A DNA stretch of 64,000 nt, taken from Gemmatimonadota bacterium (GTDB lineage: Bacteria; Gemmatimonadota; Gemmatimonadetes; Palauibacterales; Palauibacteraceae). Positions 2,963 to 36,691 of the stretch are shown piece by piece. The stretch lies in assembly GCA_963666735.1 (NCBI GenBank), contig OY762926.1:576001-640000 (forward strand). The letters are read 5' to 3'. Within the stretch, counting starts at the first letter, position 1; each line of letters begins with the position of its first letter. The notes beneath the pieces are model-generated. The model did no database searches. It saw only the letters and a program-made list of their open reading frames with translations, and had not been told where the DNA came from. The position numbers and the translations under genes were made by a program.

Positions 2963-5472
2963 ACATCTCGTTCAACTGGATCGACGAACTCGCCGGACTG
3001 CGCGGGGCGTTGCGCGACCCGCGGGTTCTGGCCGAGCGCCTGACCATGACCGCCGCCGCGGTGGAGAAGATCGAAACGGTGGGCGCGGGGCTGGACGGGA
3101 TCGTCGTGTCGCGCGTGCTCGAGACTCGTCCGCACCCGAACGCGGACCGCCTTACCCTGTGCAGGGTGGACCGGGGCACCGGCGAGGCGCTCGACGTCGT
3201 GTGCGGGGCTCCAGTCATTGCCACCGGGGGGTTCTATCCGCATGTGGCGCCGGGGGGCAAACTCCCCGCCGGCTTCCGCATCGAGAGCCGGAAGATTCGC
3301 GGCGAGCCGAGTCACGGCATGCTGTGCTCGGAGGCCGAACTCGAGCTGGGCCGCGACAAGGGGGGCATCATGCGCCTCGCCGACGGACTCGAGCCGGGAA
3401 CGCCGCTCGCGGCGGCGCTGGGCCTGCCCGACACGCGTCTCACGCTGGACCTGAACCCGAACCGGGTCGATCTCGCCTGCCATGTGGGGGTCGCGCGGGA
3501 AGTGGGGGGGGCTCCGGCGCCGCGCGACTTCGGAGGGCCGGGATGGTCGCCCGAGTGGCTCGACGGCGAGTCCGAAGCGGGCGGAGCCGGGGTCACCGTC
3601 CGCATCGAGGACCTCCACCGATGTCCGCGCTACATGGCCGCCGTCATCCGGGGGGTCAGGGTCGGACCGTCGCCGGCGTGGCTCGCGGGGCGGCTTCTCG
3701 CGGTGGGCGCACGTCCGATCAGCAACGTCGTCGACGCGACGAACTACGTCCTCCAGGAATACAACCAGCCTCTCCACGCCTTCGATCTCGCGCGGCTGTC
3801 CGGAGCGGAGATCCGCGTGCGCGCGGCCGTGGAGGGCGAACGGCTGACGACGCTCGATGGCCAGGAGCACAAGCTCACGCCGCACCAGACGGTGATCGCG
3901 GACCGCGATCGCGCGATCGCCTTCGCGGGTGTCATGGGAGGACTCGACACGGAGGTGGTCGGGGACACGGTCGATGTGCTCATCGAGTGCGCGTCGTTCA
4001 ACCCGGCCGGCGTGCGGCGGACCCGGGCCGGTGCGGGGCTCTCCACCGATGCGTCCTACCGCTTCGAGCGCGGGATCGATGTCCACGCCCAGGAGCGGGC
4101 GCTCGCGCGGTGCGTGGAACTCATCCTCGCCACAGCCGGCGGCGAGGCGGACCTCATCGGCCTCCGCGCGGGTCCGGCGCCGGCCCCGATGCCGTCGATA
4201 GACGTCCGCACAGGTCGCGTGGATCAGGTGCTCGGCTTCGGGCTCGACCGGTCGGAGGTCCTCGCGGCGCTCGAGCCGATCGGCTTCACGGCCCTTCCCG
4301 GCGTGAACGGTGGCGATACGGGTGACGATGGCCTACACGGGGCAACCGGCCAGCTGCGCGTCTGCGTGCCCGGATGGCGCACCGACGTCACCAGGGAGAT
4401 CGATCTCGTCGAGGAGGTCGCGCGCCGCGTCGGGTACGACGCCGGGGCAGGCCAGGACCGCAGGTTCCGGCCCAGCGCGGTGCCCGCGGATCCACGGGTC
4501 GAAAAGGCGGCCAGAGTGCGGAAGATGCTCACCGGACGCGGACTCCTCGAAGCTCGCAGCCTGAGCTTCATGCCGGAGGATTACCGGGGGAATCGCGCCG
4601 TCGTTTCGGTGCCGAACCCGCTCTCGGCGGAGGAAAGTTGCCTTCGCTCCGCCATGGTCCCCGTGCTGCTTCGGCGACTGGAACACAATTATGCGCGCGG
4701 CAACCGCAACGTCCGCCTGTTCGAACTCGGCACCGTGTTCGGGTACGCGGCCGGGCCGAGTCCGGGAGAGGCACCCGACGGGAAGGCGGACGGAACCGGC
4801 GGTTTCGAGGAGTCCGGACGAGTGGGGGCCGTCATCGCCGGGACCCGGCGTCCGGATCACTGGTCGGGGCCGGCGCTCGACTTCGACCTGTGGGATCTCA
4901 AGGAGATCGCCGGGTCGTTCGCGGATCATCTTTGCGGGGCGACGCTGGAGCCGCTCGAGGGCGCCGCGGCTGCGGATTCGCCGGAGAGCGGAGCGTCTCT
5001 CGCGGGGCCATGGCTCGCCCCCGGCGGGTTCCGCGCCGTGAAGGACGGTCGCGTGGTCGGCGTTGCGGGCGCCGTGGACGAGGCGTCTCTCGACGGTCCT
5101 CCGTGGGCCGCTCCCGCGTTCGGGCTCGAGTTCGACCTCGCCGCCGTCGAGGGGCGGACCGCGCCCGCCTATCGGAAGACGTCGCCGTTCCCGGCCGTGC
5201 GCCGGGATCTCTCGATGACGGTGCCGCGAGGCGTCCCCGCCGCGGACATCGAACGGGCGGTGCGGGAAGCGACGTCCGATCTCCTGCGCGACGTACGCCT
5301 CTTCGACGTTTACTCGGGCGATGAAATCGAAGGCGGCCGCCTCGGACTGGCATGGACGTTTCGCTTCCGCGCTCCCGACCGTACGCTGACGGATCGGGAC
5401 GTCGAGTCGGAGATGTCCGCGCTCTCTTCCGCCCTGGAGAAACGGTTCGGTGCCAGAATCCGGAAGTCCTGA
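2959..5472 (+). CDS. pheT: Phenylalanine-tRNA ligase beta subunit
   Basis: HPNADRL, GMLCSEAELEL, NVVDATNYV, TDASYRFERG, DLVEEVAR, C-terminal FDX-ACB (FPAVRRDLS..DRTLTD). Confidence 0.97.
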   Translation: MNISFNWIDELAGLRGALRDPRVLAERLTMTAAAVEKIETVGAGLDGIVVSRVLETRPHPNADRLTLCRVDRGTGEALDVVCGAPVIATGGFYPHVAPGGKLPAGFRIESRKIRGEPSHGMLCSEAELELGRDKGGIMRLADGLEPGTPLAAALGLPDTRLTLDLNPNRVDLACHVGVAREVGGAPAPRDFGGPGWSPEWLDGESEAGGAGVTVRIEDLHRCPRYMAAVIRGVRVGPSPAWLAGRLLAVGARPISNVVDATNYVLQEYNQPLHAFDLARLSGAEIRVRAAVEGERLTTLDGQEHKLTPHQTVIADRDRAIAFAGVMGGLDTEVVGDTVDVLIECASFNPAGVRRTRAGAGLSTDASYRFERGIDVHAQERALARCVELILATAGGEADLIGLRAGPAPAPMPSIDVRTGRVDQVLGFGLDRSEVLAALEPIGFTALPGVNGGDTGDDGLHGATGQLRVCVPGWRTDVTREIDLVEEVARRVGYDAGAGQDRRFRPSAVPADPRVEKAARVRKMLTGRGLLEARSLSFMPEDYRGNRAVVSVPNPLSAEESCLRSAMVPVLLRRLEHNYARGNRNVRLFELGTVFGYAAGPSPGEAPDGKADGTGGFEESGRVGAVIAGTRRPDHWSGPALDFDLWDLKEIAGSFADHLCGATLEPLEGAAAADSPESGASLAGPWLAPGGFRAVKDGRVVGVAGAVDEASLDGPPWAAPAFGLEFDLAAVEGRTAPAYRKTSPFPAVRRDLSMTVPRGVPAADIERAVREATSDLLRDVRLFDVYSGDEIEGGRLGLAWTFRFRAPDRTLTDRDVESEMSALSSALEKRFGARIRKS

Positions 5473-5710
5473 CCGGCAACGGGCGGTCGAACGACTGCTC
5501 GACCGCCTCTCCCGGGCGGCAAGCAGGATCGAGACCCGTTGGGAGAAACCCAGGGTCGCGGGCCGGAGCGGACCGGCGACTCCCGACATCGAGGAGCGGC
5601 TCGAGGCGGTGACGGCCGAGAACCGCCGCCTGCGCGAAACGCTGGCCGAGGCCAGGAAGAAGGCCGTGCGATTGCGAAGCCGACTCGCTCATGTGGAGGA
5701 TGAGGTATGA
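5450..5710 (+). CDS. Small coiled-coil protein (ZapB-like position); start uncertain
   Basis: Heptad-rich (IEERLEAVTAENRRLRETLAEAR); lies between pheT and zapA and overlaps the zapA start. Confidence 0.55.
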   Translation: MPESGSPDRQRAVERLLDRLSRAASRIETRWEKPRVAGRSGPATPDIEERLEAVTAENRRLRETLAEARKKAVRLRSRLAHVEDEV

Positions 5711-6012
5711 CTTCAACGGATGATTCGCCTCCGGTCGGCGTGACGATCTTCGGCGATCGATACCGGATCCGGACCGACCGGGGCGACGCGTACACGCGAG
5801 CTTGCGCGAAGTACGTGGACGACGCGGTTCAGCGTGCGCACATGACGGGCGTGGCCGAGCCCCATCGCGCCGCGATCCTCGCCGCGCTCGAGATCACCGA
5901 CGAACTCCTTCAGGCCCGCCGCGAGGTCGAGCAGCTCACGGCCGCCGTCGAGGCGCGAGTCACGGAAGTGACCGAACGGCTCGAGTCCATCGGGGGCAAC
6001 ACCGCGCGATAA
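5707..6012 (+). CDS. zapA: Cell division protein ZapA
   Basis: VTIFGDRYRI..AKYVD..AAILAALEITDEL; pheT-zapA-6S-rny synteny. Confidence 0.9.
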   Translation: MTSTDDSPPVGVTIFGDRYRIRTDRGDAYTRACAKYVDDAVQRAHMTGVAEPHRAAILAALEITDELLQARREVEQLTAAVEARVTEVTERLESIGGNTAR

Positions 6013-6220
6013 GGTCTCGCCGTCCGCTTGCGGCGTTCAGAATCCCGAGCAACGTTTCCGGGCGCAGGTTGGAGGGATGCAGGATGGAGGGATCAGGAGC
6101 AATCGGTGTTGTGCTGTCCGTAAGGTGGCTTCGCACGAGCGCGGCCCCAGCTTCAGATAGATGATCGAACGGCGCGCATCGTTCCGTTCGATCTGAGCGG
6201 CATGCACCGGTGGACGAGTC
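6013..6220 (+). ncRNA. ssrS: 6S RNA (predicted)
   Basis: About 200-nt non-coding gap directly after zapA, a known 6S location. The ends pair as CGTCCGC(6021-27)/GTGGACG(6210-16) and GTTCAGAATC/GATCTGAGC, consistent with a long rod. Confidence 0.7.
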
Positions 6221-6233
6221 CGCCGGTTTTTTT
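6206..6233 (+). terminator. Intrinsic terminator
   Basis: ACCGGTGGA-CGAG-TCCGCCGGT hairpin followed by a T run. Confidence 0.75.
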
Positions 6234-6266
6234 GTTCATAGATGGTTCGAGGATCGGAGTCTGGCC

Positions 6267-7838
6267 GTGCTGGAATCCATCACCGTGCCGACGATGCTGT
6301 TGGCGATCGCGGGTCTCGTGGCGGGGGGCCTTGCGGGGATTCTGATCGAGCGACGCGGTCTGCGCCGGGCGCGCAGCCGCCTCGAGATCGACGGACGGGA
6401 CATCGTCGAGTCCGCCCGGCTCGAGGCGGGCAGCCTCCGCAAGGCGGCGGAACTGGCGGGGCGCGAAGAGGCACAGCGTCTCCGGGAGGAATCGGCCAGA
6501 GAGGCGGAGCGCCGGCGCGCCGAGTTGGAGCGGCTGGAGCAGCGCACTCTCGAGCGGAGCGAGACGCTCGAGCAGAAGCTCGAAAAGATCGACCAGCGGC
6601 AGGAGCGGGTGGATCGTCGCCGCGAGCAGATCGAGGCGGAGCGCGGCCAACTCGACACGCGGGCGAAGGAACTCGTCGACCGCGAGCGGAAACTCGGAAA
6701 GCGCCTCGAGGAAATCGCGGGCATCAGCCGGGAAGCCGCGCGCCGCGAGCTGATCGGCCAGATTCGCGACCAGGCGCGGGCGGACGCCGCCCAGCACCTG
6801 CGGGAGGTGACCGAGCGTGCCCGAAACGAGGCCGAACGGGAAGCCCGCAAGATCATCTCCCAGGCGATCGAGAAGCTCTCCGTAGATCATTCCTCCGAAG
6901 CGGCCGTCTCGGTCGTCACCCTCCCCAGCGATGACATGAAGGGCCGAATCATCGGTCGCGAAGGCCGGAACATCCGATCCTTCGAGGCGGCCACCGGCGT
7001 CGACGTGGTCGTGGATGATACGCCCGAGGCCGTGATTCTCTCCTGCTTCGATCCCGTCCGGCGCGAAGTCGCCCGGCTGGCCATGGATCGCCTCGTCGGC
7101 GATGGCCGGATACACCCGGGCCGCATCGAGGAGGTCGTGGAGAAGGCACGGGAAGATGTTCAGGCCACGATGCGCCAGGCCGCCGACGAGGTTCTGTACG
7201 AACTCGGCATCCACGACCTGCACCCGAAACTCCGCGAAGTCCTCGGTGTCCTCCGCTTCCGGACCAGCTACGGGCAGAATCAGCTGCAGCACGCGCACGA
7301 AGTCGCGCTCATCGGAGCGACGATGGCGGCGGAGTTGTCGCTCGATACGCAGTTGGTGAAGCGGATGGGTCTGCTGCACGACATCGGCAAGGGACTCACG
7401 CACGAGAAAGAGGGGAGCCACGTCGAGATCGGTTACGATCTGTGCAAGAAATGTGGAGAGAAGGACGGCGTGCTGAACGCGATCCGCGCGCACCATGGCG
7501 AAGAACCCGCCCGTTATCCGGAAACCTTCCTCGTGACCGCGGCGGACGCGATCTCGGGCGCCCGTCCCGGGGCGCGGCGGGAGTCGTTTGAGCACTACGT
7601 GAAGCGACTGGAGAAATTGGAAGAGATCGCGAGTTCCTGGGATGGGGTCGAGAAGGTCTACGCCATCCAGGCAGGGCGGGAGATCCGGATCATGGTGACG
7701 CCCGACAAGATCTCGGACGAAGAGATGGCGCGGCTGTCGGAACGGACGGCCCGCCGCATCGAGAACGAGTTGCAGTATCCGGGCCAGATCAAGGTCGTCG
7801 TCGTGCGCGAGTCCCGAACCGTGGACTTCGCACGCTAA
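6267..7838 (+). CDS. rny: Ribonuclease Y
   Basis: N-terminal TM helix, coiled coil, KH (MKGRIIGREGRNIR), HD (LLHDIGK), ADAISGARPGARRE, YAIQAGREIR. GTG start chosen downstream of the terminator. Confidence 0.97.
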   Translation: MLESITVPTMLLAIAGLVAGGLAGILIERRGLRRARSRLEIDGRDIVESARLEAGSLRKAAELAGREEAQRLREESAREAERRRAELERLEQRTLERSETLEQKLEKIDQRQERVDRRREQIEAERGQLDTRAKELVDRERKLGKRLEEIAGISREAARRELIGQIRDQARADAAQHLREVTERARNEAEREARKIISQAIEKLSVDHSSEAAVSVVTLPSDDMKGRIIGREGRNIRSFEAATGVDVVVDDTPEAVILSCFDPVRREVARLAMDRLVGDGRIHPGRIEEVVEKAREDVQATMRQAADEVLYELGIHDLHPKLREVLGVLRFRTSYGQNQLQHAHEVALIGATMAAELSLDTQLVKRMGLLHDIGKGLTHEKEGSHVEIGYDLCKKCGEKDGVLNAIRAHHGEEPARYPETFLVTAADAISGARPGARRESFEHYVKRLEKLEEIASSWDGVEKVYAIQAGREIRIMVTPDKISDEEMARLSERTARRIENELQYPGQIKVVVVRESRTVDFAR

Positions 7839-26472: not shown

Positions 26473-28326
26473 TTAGGTCATGGCCGACCGTCGGTGCTGG
26501 GGCATCGAGGCGACGACGACCTCGCGGCGGGCGGCGTCCCAGAAGTAGTAGATGCGCAGGCAGCGCCGGGGGTCGCGCGTGTTCCCACCGTTCTTGAGGT
26601 GCCAGTCCACCCGGTGCCGTTCGCCGCGCCAGTCGAAGTCGAAGCTGTCGCCCCCGCAGCGCTGGTTGCGGATGCCGTCCGCGAGTCCCGGGATCATGCC
26701 GTAAAGATGGCCCTCTCCGCCTCCCAGGCGCGCCTCGCGGTATTCGTTGCCGAGCCAGTGAAGACAGACCGCCGCCAGCCCCACATCTTCGAACAGGGCC
26801 CTGTTCAGACTGCGCCGCACCGCATCGGCGAGCACGACGCGGCCCTCCAGGGCCGAGGCGCACCAAGTAACGACGTCGTCCCAGCCCACCGGGAACGGCG
26901 CCTTCGGATTTCCGCCGGCGAGCCGCACCAGACCCTCCAGCCGGCGCGCCTCCCGCTCCGCGCTCTCGCGCTCCACTCGCGCGGTCGCCTCCATCTCTCT
27001 GGCCCGGTCGCGTTCGCGCGCCAGCGTCTCGCCTCTCTTCCGCGCCGCCTTCAGGTCGCGCCGTAGGCCGGAGAGTTCGTCACGGAGCGCCGCGCCTTCG
27101 GTCTTCGCGGTCTCTGTTTCCGCGGGCGCCCGCACTTCCGGCCCGGTTCCGGCGGACGACATTCCCGCGCCCGAGCCGGGCGCGCGCGTCGTCGCCGGTC
27201 CGTACGAGCGTCGCCGTCCAATCCACCGCCGCGGCGGCCCGGCCAGCCGGGCCGCGCCGGCCGACACGGTGGCCGGGAGACGCCGCCACGGCCTGGCGAG
27301 GCGGAGCGCGGCCTCGGCCAACCGCGCTTCGGGAGGAAGAACCGTATCGAAGCGGATGCCTTCCGCCGCGGCGGTTCGCACATGGTGGTCGCCGGCGATC
27401 CGGAGGATCTCCTGCGTGGTCCGCTCGAGGCCGGCATCCGTTTCCACGCGCTCGCGCAGGTACACGGGATGGTCGAAGCGCCGGGCGGTGCGGCTGAAGC
27501 CGGGCAGGTACACCCGCCAGGCGCCGTCGTACACCGAGAGCGTCTTCGTGACGGTATCGCTCAGCGTGTACGTGAACCGTTGCGGAAGCACGGTCACGGT
27601 GGCCAGTCCGGTCAGCGCGCGAGCCACCCGTGCCGACCGTTCCAGCAGTGCGTGCGCATCGCCCCCGTACGTGGGTTCCGTGATGACGACGACCGGAAGC
27701 GGACGCGCCGGATCGACGAGCGCCGCGATGAACTCCTGCATCGCCTGTGGCGTCCACACCGCCGCAGCGTCGAGAACCAGCGCTTCCCCGCCCAGAACGA
27801 GGGGAGCGGCCCCGGCGATATGGCGCAACACGTCCGGAGGAAGGGTCTCCGGCGCCTGGCCGGACGACGCCGGCCAGTCCGGGACGCGGGCCCCGACCGT
27901 CGGTTCCGCCCCGTCGCCGGGCGCCGCGACGACGAGTTCCGTCACCGAGGCGCGGTCGGTCCCCGCGCCCAACTCCACGCGCGCCGCCCAGAAGTCCCCG
28001 CGGCCGCTACGCTCGCGGACCCCCCGGCAACGCGACTCTCCATCGTCGTACTGGAACGACCGGTGCCGCGCCGCCCTTCGCGGCAACTCGCCGCCGAGGC
28101 GGTGCCCGACCCAGCCCATGGCCGCCGTGCGGCATTCGCGGAGAGCGGGGCGCCCGTCCGCGCCATCGGCGATTTGCGCCGTCACGTGCAGGGCCCGACC
28201 CTTGGCGGCGAGTTCCCACGCCCCCAGTTGCTCAAGGGAGGTGAACGTCGATCCCGTCACAGTAGCAAAACCTTCACAAGTGTCTTCGGCAACAGGGGCG
28301 CCGCGCCGTTTGCGCGACGGCAGCAC
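26473..28326 (-). CDS. Hypothetical protein with coiled coil and RelE/BECR-like C-terminus; start uncertain
   Basis: Long ORF: DPARPLPVVVIT..LSVYDGAWRVYLPGF..HP, a coiled coil, then WHLKNGGNTRDPRRCLRIYYFWD..VVVASMPQH. Confidence 0.7.
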   Translation of the reverse strand: MLPSRKRRGAPVAEDTCEGFATVTGSTFTSLEQLGAWELAAKGRALHVTAQIADGADGRPALRECRTAAMGWVGHRLGGELPRRAARHRSFQYDDGESRCRGVRERSGRGDFWAARVELGAGTDRASVTELVVAAPGDGAEPTVGARVPDWPASSGQAPETLPPDVLRHIAGAAPLVLGGEALVLDAAAVWTPQAMQEFIAALVDPARPLPVVVITEPTYGGDAHALLERSARVARALTGLATVTVLPQRFTYTLSDTVTKTLSVYDGAWRVYLPGFSRTARRFDHPVYLRERVETDAGLERTTQEILRIAGDHHVRTAAAEGIRFDTVLPPEARLAEAALRLARPWRRLPATVSAGAARLAGPPRRWIGRRRSYGPATTRAPGSGAGMSSAGTGPEVRAPAETETAKTEGAALRDELSGLRRDLKAARKRGETLARERDRAREMEATARVERESAEREARRLEGLVRLAGGNPKAPFPVGWDDVVTWCASALEGRVVLADAVRRSLNRALFEDVGLAAVCLHWLGNEYREARLGGGEGHLYGMIPGLADGIRNQRCGGDSFDFDWRGERHRVDWHLKNGGNTRDPRRCLRIYYFWDAARREVVVASMPQHRRSAMT

Positions 28327-28489: not shown

Positions 28490-30232
28490 CTACACGTCGT
28501 TGACGAGTCTGTACTCGATGAGCGCGGACTGGCCGACGATGCTCACGATCCGGATGAGCCGCTCGGCGCCGTCGGGGTCGGTGACTCGCAGTTGCTCCCC
28601 CGGTAGGAAGGCGACGGGCTCACGCCGTCCCTCGTTGATGGCGAGGTTGGTTGCGTAAAGGTAGGTGCGGTCGAGCTTGTCCCGGATCGGGTTGAGCCTG
28701 CCCTTCAGGCCGGGGATCTTGCCCGTGCGTTCGGGAAAGATCACCGACCCACCGTCCGGCAGCACCGAGAGTTCGATATCCAGTGGATCGTCGCCGGGAA
28801 TCCATGCGGTCTCGACATGCGCGGCGTATCCCGCGGCGGCGGCGAAGACCGTCATCGGAAGCTCGGTGGTGTGAAGATCGACGGCGGTCTCGCCGCTTTC
28901 GCCGGTGGTTCCCGTCTTCCAGGTCTCGTTGGGGAACAGGACGAGCAGGTCGATGCCGGGCAACGGCGTACCGGCCTCGCTCGCGCGGATCACGGCGGTC
29001 GCCGGCGTCGGCGCGGTGGGCGCGGCGGGAATCGTGAGGAACAGGTCCGCGTCGTCGACGAGCCGGTACCGGGGCTCCTTGCCGCTCAGGCCGCGCGTCT
29101 CGCGCAGAATCGTCGGAACCCCGTCTCCTCTCCGTTCCATGAAGAACTGTCGCCCGCCCGAACAGAGGATCTTTCCCACCGGCATGCGGCCCAGCATGGA
29201 GGCGAGCGTCTGGTTACGGGTCGCCTGCCGGGTAGCCATGCTCTCGACGGTGAGGTTGTTCGGAAGGGCGCCGGGGGAGTTGATCTCGATTCGGTCGGAG
29301 AACATCGAGAGCCGAATGCGGCTGCCGCGAATCGAGTAGTCCCGGTGCGCAACGGCGTTGACGATGGCTTCGAACAAGGCCTTCTCGCTGTACTGCGGCA
29401 GATCGACGCGCGCGGGCTGTTTGTGCGCGCCGACTCGCATATTGCGGACGGCGAAGTTGACGGCTTCCGCGATCTGGCGCTGCAGCGGCCCGGTAATCGT
29501 CTGGGCGTCCAGCTGGCCGGAGCCCCTGTCCACACCCCGGTACTGCGTCGCGCTGATGCAGGCGTTCGGCAGCCATGCCTCCGGGGCCGCGGCGCACAAC
29601 AGCACTCCGGCCACCGTGGCGCGGCGGATCCCGCTTTCGTCGCGAGTCATAACTCCCATTTTTTCGAGCGCCAGCTTTGGGTCGGCGGCGCCCTCGGCAC
29701 TGAGCAGCGGTCCCCAGAGTTCCTCGTCGAGCGTGCCGAAGCCGGTGCCCGGAACAGGCTGTTCGTCGAACCACAGGAAACGCGCCTGCGACCGGCGCTG
29801 GGCGAGACGCAATCCCTCGTCGCTTGTCATCCTGCGCTTGGAACTGCCGATGCGGCGGAACGCCCCCCCCGGACTTTCATGCAGCGCGTAACCGGGCGGG
29901 ACCTCCACAAGAAGAAGCGCCCTGCCGTCGACCTCCGCACGGAACGTCGTGACCTCGATGGACGGCCTTACCGTGTCGGTACAGAGGTTGACGACGAATT
30001 CCTCAAGCGCATCCATCTCGCCGCGCGTCATTCCTTGAATCTGGCCGGAGTCGGTGACGCCGCAGAACATCACGCCGCCCCGCGCGTTGGCGAACGCCGC
30101 CAGTTCGTCGGCGATGCTCCTTCTCTCCGGGCGCACCGGACGGTTGCCGCGGAACTCGAACTCCTTGAATTCCGTGCGGCTGTCTTCGCCCAGGCGGAGC
30201 CGTTGCCGGATCTCGTTTTCGTCGAATGTCAT
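28490..30232 (-). CDS. AlbA_2/Schlafen-domain protein with HATPase_c_4 domain and an extra C-terminal beta domain
   Basis: GEDSRTEFKE..AAFANARGG..GVTD; EAIVNAVAHRDYS, IEINSPG, RNQTLA, MERRGDGV. Start reassigned to ATG 30232. Confidence 0.88.
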   Translation of the reverse strand: MTFDENEIRQRLRLGEDSRTEFKEFEFRGNRPVRPERRSIADELAAFANARGGVMFCGVTDSGQIQGMTRGEMDALEEFVVNLCTDTVRPSIEVTTFRAEVDGRALLLVEVPPGYALHESPGGAFRRIGSSKRRMTSDEGLRLAQRRSQARFLWFDEQPVPGTGFGTLDEELWGPLLSAEGAADPKLALEKMGVMTRDESGIRRATVAGVLLCAAAPEAWLPNACISATQYRGVDRGSGQLDAQTITGPLQRQIAEAVNFAVRNMRVGAHKQPARVDLPQYSEKALFEAIVNAVAHRDYSIRGSRIRLSMFSDRIEINSPGALPNNLTVESMATRQATRNQTLASMLGRMPVGKILCSGGRQFFMERRGDGVPTILRETRGLSGKEPRYRLVDDADLFLTIPAAPTAPTPATAVIRASEAGTPLPGIDLLVLFPNETWKTGTTGESGETAVDLHTTELPMTVFAAAAGYAAHVETAWIPGDDPLDIELSVLPDGGSVIFPERTGKIPGLKGRLNPIRDKLDRTYLYATNLAINEGRREPVAFLPGEQLRVTDPDGAERLIRIVSIVGQSALIEYRLVNDV

Positions 30233-30490
30233 GGGCCTGCCCCGAGCCGGTCCTCGCGCACCTTGCACGGGTGCGAACTCTGGCGGAAGGTAACGGCCCG
30301 AGCGCGCCGAGTGGTAGCGTCGTGAAACACTCCGCGTGCCGCTGGGGGGACGCTTGACCATCGTGAGCTCGGGCCCCCGATGGCTGGACGAGGGCAGTGA
30401 CGACGGCAATATTCCAAGGGACATTGAGGAGGACGGGTGCGCCTCGCCTGCCCAAGGGCGGCGGCGTCCTCGGAACACCAGGGAGGCCAC

Positions 30491-31803: not shown

Positions 31804-32973
31804 CTATTGGGGCGGAGGGGGCATCTCGGGGCAGTCCTCCCCGGCCAGCGATGGAGTAAAGAGTACCGCCCGCGGAACGAGGCCGTCTTCCCGGATCGTG
31901 TACAGTAGGGATTTGTCGCCTGTCCACCACAGCGCTTCATCATGCACGGTTCGAGCAACAAGGCGACCCGTCTGGACGTCGATCACTTCGACCACTCCAT
32001 CCATCATTTTCGTCAAATCCAGCGGTACGAAGGGCACTGGGTCCGCCACGGCATCCCTCCACTGGTCGTCAGCTACGGTCGTTGCAATCCACAGATGTCC
32101 ACCCGCGTACTTCAAGCCTCTAATGACCGATGGCGCCGGAGCCTCGAGCGGATATCCTTCCAACGGCGGGCCTGGCGTGAACCAGGGGGGGCGCCCCTCC
32201 AACCGAACGACCCTGTCCGGATCCGCGGGATCCCACGCCTCGACGGCGTACTCGGTGGGTAGTGCCCGCCACACTCTCCCCTCCTCATCCGTTGCCAGCG
32301 GCGAAGGGAAGAAACGGCGCATCGCATCGTCCGTGGGTACGACGGCAATCATCTCGATCGTATTCCCATCCAGATCGATGGCTTGCGTGATCTCGGCGCG
32401 CTCCGAGTCGTCGGTGCGCCCCCAGCCCGCCAACACGAACCCCGAACCGGACGCCAGCGCCATGAAGTTAGTCGTGAACCTCGCGCCGATGTCTGTCAAC
32501 TGCATCGGCTCCCAAGCCGCGGACAGATGCGTAATTCGCCGAATGAATGGATCGAGCACCAGCACGCCGCCATCGGGCAGGGGCCGCAACATGCCGTGGC
32601 CCGGTTCGAAGAACTCGCCCGGACCTTCTCCGCTCCGCCCGAAGCTCTCCCGGTACGTGCCTTGGCCATCGTATACCAACATCTCCGCGCCGTTCTCCGG
32701 GGTGGCGAGCACGAAGTCGCCGGACTCGAGGCGCGTGATTATCGAGGGAGATCCGATGGTGCCCGGATCATCCATCGCTCCGAGACTGAGTGCCTCATCG
32801 AGCACGACCTCGCACGACGGCGGCTCCGAAGAGATCGGCAACACCTGCTGCGAGGCCGCCATTGCTGGAGCACCCGCGAGGAGGGCGCCCGGCAACCACC
32901 ACCGCCGAAGCGATGACGATGACACTGCGCCGACCAGGCGGGTCGGCTCTTGGGCACGCCACCTCAGGTACAT
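31804..32973 (-). CDS. 6-bladed beta-propeller-like protein
   Basis: LVYDGQGTYRESFGRSGEGPGEF motif and a signal-like stretch (WWLPGALLAGAPAMAA). ATG 32973 overlaps the upstream gene end by 10 nt. Confidence 0.75.
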   Translation of the reverse strand: MYLRWRAQEPTRLVGAVSSSSLRRWWLPGALLAGAPAMAASQQVLPISSEPPSCEVVLDEALSLGAMDDPGTIGSPSIITRLESGDFVLATPENGAEMLVYDGQGTYRESFGRSGEGPGEFFEPGHGMLRPLPDGGVLVLDPFIRRITHLSAAWEPMQLTDIGARFTTNFMALASGSGFVLAGWGRTDDSERAEITQAIDLDGNTIEMIAVVPTDDAMRRFFPSPLATDEEGRVWRALPTEYAVEAWDPADPDRVVRLEGRPPWFTPGPPLEGYPLEAPAPSVIRGLKYAGGHLWIATTVADDQWRDAVADPVPFVPLDLTKMMDGVVEVIDVQTGRLVARTVHDEALWWTGDKSLLYTIREDGLVPRAVLFTPSLAGEDCPEMPPPPQ

Positions 32974-33571
32974 TCGCCAAAACACCAAAACCGGCCATCG
33001 GGCCCGCAACTGATGTTGGGGATACAAAAAGCGGCACGACACCTTGAACTGAGATCATCGGGACTCACGCAATCGCCGATGTTGCGGCAGCTACACCACG
33101 GAATCACGTCATCGGGAGGCGCGGTGGCGTCTGACAAATCCGATGACCCGAGCAATCTGAAAGCGAACCAAGCCTCCTCGCGGCTAAACAGGTTCGACAC
33201 TGCTGTCTCAAGCGCTTGTTCCGCCCGCGAGCCCCGGTCCGTAGGGTGTTGCTCGTACCAAGCTCTTACGCTCCCAATCACCGCCTTCTGTTCGCTGCTG
33301 AAGCGATCATCTTGTGCGGCGCGGGCCAGATGCTCGCTTCGGAGCATGGAGCGAAGATCCTCGTTCCCCCGGCTCGTGATGATTGCGCGTTCCGCTGGTC
33401 CGTACTCAATGAACCTCTCGTAAGTGAGCGTCGGGGAGTCGACGTGCTGCGCGACCGGGTCCGCTGTCGCACACACACCTGCGGGACCGCTATACTCTTC
33501 CCGCTCTTCGGTTAGGCCGGACATCCCGATCCCGGCCGCCGCCGAACACAGGCTAACCATTTCAGCCTCAT
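32964..33571 (-). CDS. Bacteriocin fulvocin C-related precursor (possible 1-nt frameshift in the leader)
   Basis: Helical pro-region (EHL..FSREEAWFAFRLLG) and C-terminal C-x-C-x5-C-x9-C-x4-C-x5-CG-x6-C-x3-C. The SD-supported ATG is at 33571; the open frame starts at 33560. Confidence 0.7.
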
Positions 33572-33689
33572 GAGATTCTCTCTCCTTTTCGGCGGCCTAA
33601 TAACGTGACTAAAACTAGACGCACAACTATCGCTTTTTCACGTGATCCAAGTGTAAATTACAATCTTCGAAAATGTCAAGCCGTCGAAA

Positions 33690-34050
33690 CCGGCTGAACG
33701 GGATCCGGGGGCGGAGCGGATCGGCGTGACGCAACGGCATTCTCGCCGGTCGCGCCGGAAGTTCGAGGCCGAAGGCGCCGCGGCGGCGGTTCACGGGCGA
33801 AGCACCGCCGCCGGCGTCCGAGGCGGGCGGCGCTGGGCGAGCCGGGGCAGTGGGACAGCTCGGTGCACCCGTGGCTGGAGGAGCGGGCGGCGGAAGGGCG
33901 GGTGCCGGTCTCGATCCGCGACGACGCGACGAGCCGGCTGATGATGGCCCGCTTCGTAGCGCGCGACGACGGGGCGGAGAACCGGCGGGCGATCATCGGC
34001 TACCTTCGCCGCCACGTCCAGCCCGTAGTCGGTGTACACCGACTACGCCG
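33690..34050 (+). pseudogene. ISNCY-like transposase remnant
   Basis: RRKFEAEGAAAAVHG, then an internal jump to QWDSSVHPWLEER..IRDDATSRL..ARF..YLRRH..VYTD. Confidence 0.7.
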
Positions 34051-34059
34051 GACTGCGGC

Positions 34060-34420
34060 GCAATGCCGACTTCGCAGCGGGGATGGAGCGGGTGCTCGAC
34101 GTCTACCGGCGTCCGTACGATGCGAACTTCCAAGTGGTGTACATGGACGAGACGCCGCGCCAGGTGATCGGCGAGACCCGCACGCCCGTCCCGCCGGCAC
34201 CGGGACGGGCGGCCCGCGAAGAACACGAGTACAGGCGCCTCGGCACCCGCAACGTGTTCATGGCCACCGAACCGCTGGCCGGCCGGCGCCAGACCAAGGT
34301 GACCGGGCGCAGGACCAAGACCGACTGGGGCCGCTTCCTGCGCGACATCGCCGCGCAGTACCCCGGCGCCGCCCGGATCAGGCTGGTGATGGACAACCTG
34401 AACACGCACCGCCCCGGTGC
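34060..34420 (+). pseudogene. IS630-family transposase remnant
   Basis: MERVLDVYRRPYD..VVYMDETPRQ..EYRRLGTRNVF..RRTKTDW..LVMDNLNTH; both ends missing. Confidence 0.85.
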
Positions 34421-34509
34421 GCCTGGCACGCGGCCAGAGACCGAATCCAAGCCAACGAGGCCGCGTTCCGCCGCGCCTTCGGGATCGTAGAGGCGGCCGA
34501 ACAGCATGA

Positions 34510-34748
34510 CCTCCGCTGATGTCGCTGCGGGGTGGCGCTTCGCCCGATGTCCGAGGCGATCGCGGGGAAGGGCACTCCGACCTTCAGCTCCGGCAGCCCC
34601 ACGCCTCCTTCGCCCCCGGCCATGATGCGGTAGCCGCAGGCGATGACGCCGCCGGCAGCACGTCGGCGAACTCGACGGTGAGGACGTTCGCCGGTTCGTG
34701 CGCTATCCGGATCTCCGCCGTGCCGTTCTCATCTCTCCTTTGGATCAT
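34510..34748 (-). pseudogene. Enoyl-CoA hydratase/isomerase remnant
   Basis: SD plus MIQRRDENGTAEIRIAHEPANVLTVEF, then after a deletion/frameshift GYRIMAGGEGGVGLPELKVGVPFP. Confidence 0.6.
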
Positions 34749-34818
34749 GTCCTCTCCTCACCGCTCTCGCCTTGATTCTACTAGCAAGTTAGTTGACCGG
34801 GCGTCCTCGCCCGCCTAG

Positions 34819-36691
34819 GCCTAAAACAAGCGAGTAGGGCTGGCGAGGCGTCACTTGGATTTCGGGCGGCGGATTATGGGCGGAGGAGGCCGCCGGGAAG
34901 CCGTGTTTCCGTGGTTCCGAGGCGGGGATTCGGGGTTTGTCGCTCGGCGGAAGGAGGGTGCGGGGCCGGCGTTTTGCGCGGGGAGACACCGGTCCCCGGG
35001 GAGGCGGTTGACGCCTTCGGGCGAGCCGGGCCCGGCGGCGGGTGCTACGTGAAGCCGGTCCGCTCGATGGTGTTCCAGGTGCTGAACAGGCGGTCCACCG
35101 AGGGCCGCCAGCCGATGATGCGCAGGGTCGTGCGGCGGGCGCGGCGGATGACTTGGCAGGGCACGAGGATCATCTCGCGGACGAAGCGCCTGAACTCCAT
35201 GGCGGTGTATTTCCGGCGGTCGGCCTTCAGGTGCATCATCATCGCCAGGAAGCTCTTGAGGTTCCACGCCAAGGCCGCCATCACCATGTAGGCCCAGTTG
35301 CTCACCAGGTCGTAGACGGGCACGCGCAGCGCGTTCACCCCGTTCTTGAGCTGCGCGATCACGTTCTCCTGGCCGCACCGGGCGTTGGCCAGCCGGACGA
35401 CCTCGGCCGCGCTCACGTCCCTCCGGGTGGTGATGTGGAAGAAGTGGCGGATCTCCTCGATGAGGGCGAGTTCGCCCCTCATCTCGCTGATGTTCTTGCG
35501 CACCACCACCATCCGGTACGTCTTGCGGCACTTGACGGGCCGGTGGTCGAACTCGGCCACCTCCTCGAAGTTGAGCCGCTTGTTCACGTAACCGCGCTCG
35601 CGCACGATCCGCCCCTTCACGTCCTCCCGCCCACTCCGCGTCTTCCCCGTCCGGGACACGTGGCGGGGCTTGCGCTCCAGAGGCTTCCAGTCGTCCTCCT
35701 CCAGCGCCTCGGCCCGCCGCACCAGCGCCGAATGGGCGTCGTAGCCGAAGATGAAGTCCGCCCGCTCGCTCCAGCGGTCGAAGTTGACGGTCAGCGAGAA
35801 GTCCGTGTCCCCGCGCACGCACACCCGCTCCGCGTACGGCGCCACCAGGTCGATGGCCCGGTCGATCCACTCCGCCGCGCCGGCGTGGCTCACCGCGTTG
35901 CCCGGCCGGTTCACCACGTAGAGCACCTCGGCCGTGTTGGCCAGCGACACGACCAGCGGGTGGTAGCCCCACACCTTCTTGTAGGACATGTCCATGCCCG
36001 CCTTCTTGCGGCCCAGCGTGGGCGCCAGCGTCCCGTCCACGTCGATATGGGCCACCGGCTCCAGCAGATCCCGGCCCCGGCCCCGCCACAGCTTGGGCCT
36101 GACCGCGTTGACGCACTCCATGAGCTCGACCACGTCCGACTCGGAGAAGCGCCGCGTGAAGTCGCCCGCCGCCGTCGGACTGGGGATCACGTCCGCGCCC
36201 AGGGCGTCCATGTACGCCGCGTCGTGGCGCAGGCCGTTCAGATCCTCGAGCCGCGCGCCCCCGCACAGCAGGTTGTAGGCGATGTTCAGCACGTGGTCCG
36301 ACTCGTGGTACGGCAGGTGCCGCTTCAGAAGATCCAGTCGCCGGTCGATCTCCCGCGCCAGCGAAAGCTTCGACACCAGGCGCCGCACGGCGCCGATGCC
36401 CCCGAAGCTCATCGCGCTCGTCCGCGCCCCGATCTCGTAGCGGAGCCCGCCCGCCGAAAACACGGGCTTCGGCCGGGAGCCCCGCCGCCTCGCCCCCGCC
36501 CGCCGCGACTCCACTCTCCGCTTCCGCCGGGCACTGTTCCTTCGGCTCTGCCTGTGCGATATTCCGTTCACCGGAAAGGCCTCCTGGTTGGGATCGGGCG
36601 TCCATCGTTCGAATCCGCTATCGACAATCAGGATAAGCCTTTCCGGTACCTTTTAACAAGGGTTCGCGCGTGGATCGCGCCTGTTTTAGGC
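34819..36691 (-). mobile_element. IS1380-family insertion sequence, apparently intact
   Basis: Terminal inverted repeats GCCTAAAACAAGCG (34819) and CGCCTGTTTTAGGC (ending 36691). Flanked by CTAG on both sides, or CCTAGG if each end is 1 nt shorter. Confidence 0.9.
35045..36571 (-). CDS. IS1380-family DDE transposase
   Basis: YHESDHVLNIAYN, PSPTAAGDFTRRF, IDVDGT, GYHPL, VRGDTDF, RCGQENVIAQLK, NWAYMVMAALAWNLK. Confidence 0.93.
   Translation of the reverse strand: MNGISHRQSRRNSARRKRRVESRRAGARRRGSRPKPVFSAGGLRYEIGARTSAMSFGGIGAVRRLVSKLSLAREIDRRLDLLKRHLPYHESDHVLNIAYNLLCGGARLEDLNGLRHDAAYMDALGADVIPSPTAAGDFTRRFSESDVVELMECVNAVRPKLWRGRGRDLLEPVAHIDVDGTLAPTLGRKKAGMDMSYKKVWGYHPLVVSLANTAEVLYVVNRPGNAVSHAGAAEWIDRAIDLVAPYAERVCVRGDTDFSLTVNFDRWSERADFIFGYDAHSALVRRAEALEEDDWKPLERKPRHVSRTGKTRSGREDVKGRIVRERGYVNKRLNFEEVAEFDHRPVKCRKTYRMVVVRKNISEMRGELALIEEIRHFFHITTRRDVSAAEVVRLANARCGQENVIAQLKNGVNALRVPVYDLVSNWAYMVMAALAWNLKSFLAMMMHLKADRRKYTAMEFRRFVREMILVPCQVIRRARRTTLRIIGWRPSVDRLFSTWNTIERTGFT

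Follow-up and report, generated by a model that had tools for sequence, protein, structure and literature searches.

The window, the whole 64,000-nt stretch of DNA that was analysed, carries a gene for a small Cys-tailed protein that overlaps a beta-propeller gene on the same strand. The question raised by this locus is what the peptide does, whether this copy can still provide it, and what the propeller has to do with it. An earlier note on this DNA had described an ORF of about 200 aa at 32964..33571, in an A/T-richer islet, as a fulvocin C-like precursor with a helical pro-region and an 8-Cys tail of divergent spacing, giving a secreted, processed peptide of antimicrobial or signalling function. 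The features of the precursor gene are as follows.

32964..33560, minus strand: fulvocin C-related precursor ORF of 198 aa, start at the internal ATG 33560, NF033852 match
32967..33101, minus strand: predicted 8-Cys core of 45 aa, with 5 aromatic residues and a net charge of -1
33144..33458, minus strand: helical pro-domain, about residues 35-139 in the AF2 model, without the conserved Trp near its start
33512..33571, minus strand: ancestral start ATG 33571, now a 19-codon ORF; placed by the starts of homologues, and P0030 uses the same start
33553..33554, minus strand: loss of one base, by which the ancestral start falls out of frame; sister strains have one base more

The precursor was compared with the NCBIfam family NF033852 'fulvocin C-related' and passed narrowly, with 35.9 bits against a curated cut-off of 35 (E 1.2e-8) and an alignment spanning positions 10-149 of the 150 in the model. 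In a genome-wide scan with the same model it scored 36.5 bits and was the sole member in its genome; a Pfam search of the precursor gave no match. Its closest named relative, P0002 from Ca. Palauibacter, is 68% identical and bears the NCBI name fulvocin C-related, which points to Ca. Palauibacter as the genus of the window. All 8 tail Cys were invariant in an alignment of 16 rows, and the Cys positions are therefore conserved among homologues, as the proposed kinship demanded; in a wider alignment, 32/32 rows matched NF033852 at E<=1e-3. The spacing of the tail Cys (1,5,9,4,5,7,3) lay within the range of 31 tailed rows, 30 of which share the last two gaps (7,3), so the divergent spacing that had been claimed was not found within the family. 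The helical pro-region was borne out by AF2, in which residues 41-140 were all helix (pLDDT 80-97) and the helices ran from about 35 to 135. The tail blocks had a pLDDT of 50-61 when the precursor was modelled alone and 51-81 in the complex described below, which contains a relative's core.

No match to the precursor model was found by Foldseek at E<=0.001, the best VIA hits (Z 5.7) were generic helical bundles, in a comparison that barely tested the tail, and a PDB sequence-profile search yielded nothing credible. These absent fold matches do not establish a new fold. The best ESM Atlas score, 0.88, was to unnamed Acidobacteriota clusters and is a lead only, and no relatives appeared in two metagenome scans and one genome scan. 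The family assignment and the architecture (signal, helical pro-domain, 8-Cys core) hold for the precursor. Two further ideas about the peptide were considered. A cationic, membrane-lytic mode is unlikely because the net charge of the core is -1 and most relatives' cores are neutral or acidic. Inspection by eye showed a double-glycine cleavage motif in a few of the close relatives, and it is not kept across the family.

The coding region differs from the earlier description in its start. A 198-aa ORF with an 8-Cys tail is indeed present on the minus strand, but 33571..32964 is not a single open frame, because ATG 33571 belongs to a different frame, which meets a stop after 19 codons; the 198-aa frame starts at ATG 33560. 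In relatives of the precursor, M[KR]TGWL opens the protein and a hydrophobic stretch comes next. In the window, ATG 33571 reads MRLKWL, and the 198-aa frame opens 11 nt further on. An assembly error behind the frameshift was ruled out by contigs from X1 and X6 (two studies) and X4 (a possible source sample), which are identical to the window at this position with 0 gaps, and the missing base is thus a true feature of this allele. In what is left of the N-terminus, no K/R occurs among the first 8 residues, and the hydrophobic stretch is weaker: its hydrophobicity, a heuristic value and not the output of a signal-peptide predictor, was KD 1.85 compared to 2.25-2.65 in the full-length P0002, P0004, and P0005. 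Three residues are also missing, including a Trp found in 26/26 rows with a residue in that column, and the linker ahead of the core is 8 residues shorter.

The window allele therefore lacks an intact N-terminal export signal, which concerns the allele and not the family, and the window copy of the fulvocin-like gene is damaged. The description of a secreted, processed peptide suits the intact relatives better, since they retain the architecture and the window copy has a frameshifted signal and has lost the conserved Trp. For genome miners, the window copy is probably no source of active peptide, and the intact P0002 is the better target.

Sister strains carry a different lesion.

32935..33553, no strand assigned: segment absent from sister strains, with a CAGGC copy at each end (32935-32939 and 33549-33553)

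The deletion of 614 nt between the two CAGGC copies takes out the precursor gene and leaves its start joined, in frame, to the propeller, and the protein P0030 is such an allele. The joint (32939 to 33554) was present in X7, X9, and X13, and X14 has a loose end that fits it; the four runs come from four studies. Seven of the eight runs compared cover the site, X18 being the exception; three were frameshifted, four had the deletion, and none was intact. Genome G008 has a 5' truncation with a core remnant ahead of an open 398-aa propeller frame, and G030 has no precursor and a propeller that is decaying too, with 2 stops. The peptide has been lost and the propeller kept by three routes, namely frameshift, deletion, and 5' truncation, and this species is shedding the peptide gene but not the propeller. 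The datasets carrying the window DNA include sponge metagenomes, and none of those listed is an RNA dataset.

The partner gene is the most informative part of the locus.

31804..33042, minus strand: exported NHL-type six-bladed beta-propeller, the next gene, identified by DUF5128/NHL profile matches and AF2 of P0031

The longest propeller ORF starts at GTG 33042; ATG 32973 is the likelier start and overlaps the last precursor codons. The window propeller scored 16.8 against DUF5128, below the gathering cut-off of 22.9, and 37 of 54 propeller relatives matched that profile. Its best solved profile matches were the NHL domains of TRIM71 and Thin (E down to 3e-36), and AF2 of P0031, which is 85% identical to the window propeller, gave an all-beta model with a pLDDT of 93.5. 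Profile similarity and an all-beta propeller fold were thus both found, in a single domain without an output module.

Such propellers are abundant. This genome has 87-94 copies (71 among 2062 genes of at least 250 aa), and five other genomes had 16-67 matches each. A paralogue 43% identical to the partner propeller lies at G000 C1:897661-898779(-) with no fulvocin-like gene beside it; about 22 of 36 genomes of the genus have a close counterpart, and it was read as a domesticated orphan. A dedicated monophyletic clade of linked propellers was suggested by a first, quick tree, in which 12 of 14 linked propellers grouped with one paralogue (SH-aLRT 93). It was weakened by a second tree with 19 more propellers, in which the window propeller no longer grouped with the other linked ones.

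Linkage of the two genes was examined across the phylum. NF033852 matched 16 of 401 sampled genomes, and 19 regions were compared, 17 around these matches and 2 from a genus search; 16 of them have a Cys-tailed copy, including one frameshifted copy and one remnant. To score linkage, an HMM was trained solely on 44 other propellers from the genome that contains the window. A propeller was detected beside the Cys-tailed copy at 14/16 of these other loci, directly adjacent at 13 (upstream at one of them) and about 430 nt away at one; L033 and L038 had Cys-tailed copies without a propeller. Loci with a signal-less, tail-less pro-domain had a propeller nearby in 0/3 cases. Counts from kin genomes are not independent, and no p-value across genomes is therefore claimed. 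The pair was found across several Gemmatimonadota families, and six precursor homologues appear, by indirect evidence, to share a genome with a propeller homologue. Genes for an ABC permease/ATPase or for DsbA-like or VKOR-like proteins lie beside several copies.

The propeller partner is not universal, because no such propeller lay within 5 kb at 8 actinobacterial homologue loci, where one marginal match (E 0.0012) was seen. None of 19 further propellers of the wider clade had a fulvocin-like neighbour. Among the 8 closest propeller orthologues in the genus, 7 had no such precursor within 1.5 kb and 1 keeps a trace. These precursor-free orthologues fit orphan immunity and also an independent role for the propeller.

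The same comparison turned up several other arrangements. Stand-alone pro-domain proteins of 130-145 aa (L036:5098-5526, L041:3333-3755, L042:4875-5273, and P0029) lack a signal and a Cys tail and have no propeller near them, and the helical pro-domain may have its own role inside the cell. In the actinobacterial homologues (P0021-P0027, L043-L050), the pro-domain is preceded by an N-terminal domain of about 120 aa with DxxCxxC and a Tat-like stretch. This domain may be a DCC1-like thiol-disulfide oxidoreductase, possibly a fused disulfide catalyst. At L032 (G098, 4785-7458), a single propeller is flanked by two different fulvocin-like precursors. Propellers 57-60% identical to that of the window were found at L054-L057 (G025, G032, G033, and G031) with no fulvocin-like gene; a different exported Cys-rich peptide lies about 0.7-1.5 kb upstream of them and has a relative at G000 C1:3873081.

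Binding between the two proteins was modelled with a relative pair, P0031 (residues 5-345) and the P0002 core (168-215), whose adjacency is inferred. The complex scored 0.82 (runs 0.82, 0.86, and 0.54) compared to 0.11 for the best of 3 controls, a set that did not include a paralogous propeller. Of 157 solved complexes, 116 reach the mark applied to this score, as do 2 of 215 mismatched pairs; these counts are a rough guide here, as the alignments were our own. The runs shared at least 70% of contacts, with partner pLDDT of 77, 81, and 51, and the most certain contacts were made by the loop between Cys6 and Cys7. Its counterpart in the window copy is the core loop C185-C193, which differs at 1 of 7 positions, and 28 of 33 propeller interface residues are the same in P0030. 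The model supports binding of the core by the propeller. In five close relatives, the core was more variable than the pro-domain, with non-Cys identities to P0002 of 0.35-0.51 compared to 0.68-0.74. The predicted interface residues of the propeller varied more than the rest in most rows, a comparison to be read with the caveat that surface loops outvary blade strands in any propeller.

The pair is flanked by an aminotransferase gene on one side and an RND efflux operon on the other. The aminotransferase comparison covered 22 of 30 matching loci, the window's own included. At 18 of the 21 others in the genus, the site is empty and the RND efflux operon follows within about 1.2 kb; of the rest, 2 have the propeller and 1 is at a contig edge. 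The cassette is an insertion, because most other genus loci run straight into the RND operon. The A/T-richer islet described earlier is real and mild: the precursor ORF has a GC content of 0.605 against 0.685 for the genome (2.4th percentile of 600-nt windows) and a GC3 of 0.66 (about the 1st percentile among genes of at least 250 aa), and the upstream spacer has a GC of 0.44. Two features lie upstream.

33650..33679, minus strand: sigma-70-like promoter candidate TTGACA-18-TACACT, 10/12 consensus, by consensus match only
33863..36571, no strand assigned: IS remnants (ISNCY and IS630 fragments, IS1380 transposase), by family matches

The promoter candidate is about 80 nt upstream of the ancestral start and is one of 3 sigma-70-like sites found in the region against 0.3 expected. 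A Shine-Dalgarno-like AAGGAG (33587..33582) precedes the ancestral ATG 33571.

Across the genome, by a heuristic count, a small ORF with a signal-like start and at least 4 Cys precedes 13 of 71 propeller genes compared to 21 of 1991 other long genes; 2 of those 13 ORFs are DsbA-like and not peptides. In G000, at least 11 further small, signal-bearing, Cys-rich ORFs, unrelated in sequence, immediately precede NHL propeller genes, and the Cys peptides beside paralogous propellers are often alike.

C1:353649-353888(+), 1931329-1931592(-), 2430724-2431077(+), 2901212-2902228(+), 3873081-3873434(+): examples of Cys-rich ORFs before propellers in G000

Another variable site in the window, upstream of the aminotransferase gene, holds a Schlafen/AlbA_2 plus HATPase_c_4 protein (28490-30250, minus strand). 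A 617-aa ORF at 26473-28326 (minus strand) has a coiled-coil region and a conserved-looking C-terminal domain and occurs in few relatives.

The most likely explanation, to which we give a probability of roughly 45%, is that the locus encodes an exported, polymorphic pro-bacteriocin and its cognate immunity propeller on a small insertion. Intact relatives would export the precursor through Sec, and the core would fold with four disulfides; DsbA- or VKOR-like genes adjoin some copies. The core would be cut from the pro-domain after export, at a site that is itself putative, and the neutral-to-acidic, aromatic core would be toxic by hitting a specific target in related bacteria and not by membrane lysis. 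The propeller would capture the C-terminal loop of the core and so confer cognate immunity. In this species, the peptide gene is decaying, by frameshift in the window and by clean deletion in sister strains, and the propeller persists. A conserved pro-domain with a variable core, a variable predicted interface, predicted binding, and peptide loss with the partner kept all fit a bacteriocin-immunity pair.

The same binding model and the same retention pattern could also be produced by a signalling or kin-recognition ligand and its periplasmic receptor, with peptide losers still listening. The mostly non-cationic cores and the many unrelated Cys-peptide/propeller pairs in the genome (the 13/71 against 21/1991 above, less the DsbA-like two) would agree with such a role. 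We regard it as unlikely, however, since no conserved kinase, regulator, or transducer lies beside the cassette in the window or at loci L024-L040, the propeller has no output module, and the namesake of the family is a bacteriocin according to the available part of PMC8708641. Equally, the overlap of the genes and the ABC permease/ATPase, DsbA-like, and VKOR-like neighbours at several copies could point to a maturation or export helper (a chaperone, an escort, or a PAL-like enzyme) that holds the core during folding or cutting. PAL, a peptide-acting NHL propeller, was a weak profile match (E 4.5e-5). The zinc ligands of PAL are His, and none of the columns that are invariant or nearly so in 54 propellers is a His, which argues against an enzyme of this kind. 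Actinobacterial copies manage without a propeller, and a helper should decay after peptide loss, yet G008 retains its open 398-aa frame; a helper role is accordingly improbable.

The presence of this DNA in sponge metagenomes and the great expansion of NHL propellers here (87-94 copies) could suggest that the peptide, or the peptide-propeller complex, targets the sponge host or its phagocytes instead of bacteria. This seems very unlikely, as the same pair occurs across several Gemmatimonadota families, and repeated loss within one symbiont species speaks against a role on which the host depends. Propellers abound in these genomes and often have no fulvocin-like neighbour, so the adjacency might be historical cargo and the two proteins might not interact; linkage at 14/16 loci, where the base rate would predict a few per cent, the 0/3 for tail-less copies, and the passing complex model make this hardly credible.

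If the core is a bacteriocin captured by its immunity propeller, the pair could have a wider meaning. The fulvocin C-related family is known from annotation pipelines, and the predicted residue-level contact offers a lead that could help to assign a function to both proteins. The same contact bears on the dozen or so other Cys-peptide/propeller cassettes in the genome, and the recurrence of the pairing across the phylum could account for an unstudied type of cassette that is widespread. It is conceivable, as a tentative extension, that the Gemmatimonadota Cys-peptide/NHL-propeller cassettes together make up one extensive and undescribed polymorphic system of bacteriocins and immunity proteins, with a separate propeller clade to capture each family of disulfide-locked peptides. 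The fulvocin pair would then tie this system to a characterised bacteriocin, and sponge-symbiont strains would turn cheaters by deleting the peptide and giving its start codon to the propeller.

Fulvocin C has about 45 aa and 8 Cys and opens with CxC. The core of the window copy agrees in all three, the likeness being drawn through the family HMM only. Fulvocin C is described as a bacteriocin of Myxococcus fulvus in the available part of PMC8708641 and the references given there (Hirsch 1977; Tsai and Hirsch 1981). In the literature searched, we found no precursor, target, or immunity gene of fulvocin C, no study of the fulvocin C-related family, nothing on Palauibacter and bacteriocins, and no paper on NVEALA or DUF5128 propellers. 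The peptide-propeller pairing was likewise not described in that literature, which was thin in subscription journals and comprised main texts only; the word 'propeller' is absent from the main text of PMC10469786 and PMC11316326, and the available parts of PMC9839799 and PMC4902038 contain nothing on fulvocin.

Compared with the NF033852 family, the window copy agrees in passing the cut-off, in its helical region and 8-Cys tail, and in its 68% identity to the so-named P0002. It differs in its marginal score, in belonging to a divergent Ca. Palauibacter clade, and in an allele with a frameshifted signal and without the conserved Trp and the 8-aa linker. The 8 actinobacterial loci of the family have a long N-terminal extension and no propeller, whereas the window copy is propeller-linked. 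In Bacteroidota, small NVEALA proteins (PF14055) adjoin DUF5128/TolB-like propellers. The arrangement is the same, a small exported Cys-bearing protein before a DUF5128-like propeller, but the peptide families are unrelated, as the precursor has no Pfam match. With bacteriocin/immunity and polymorphic toxin systems, the locus shares a conserved N-terminal part, a variable C-terminal core, an adjacent partner, and orphan partners; the partner here differs in being a 350-aa exported NHL propeller, and killing and protection are putative. The peptide itself adds a new but damaged member to a family that already has a name, and what is new beyond it is the link between a propeller and a family named after a characterised bacteriocin.
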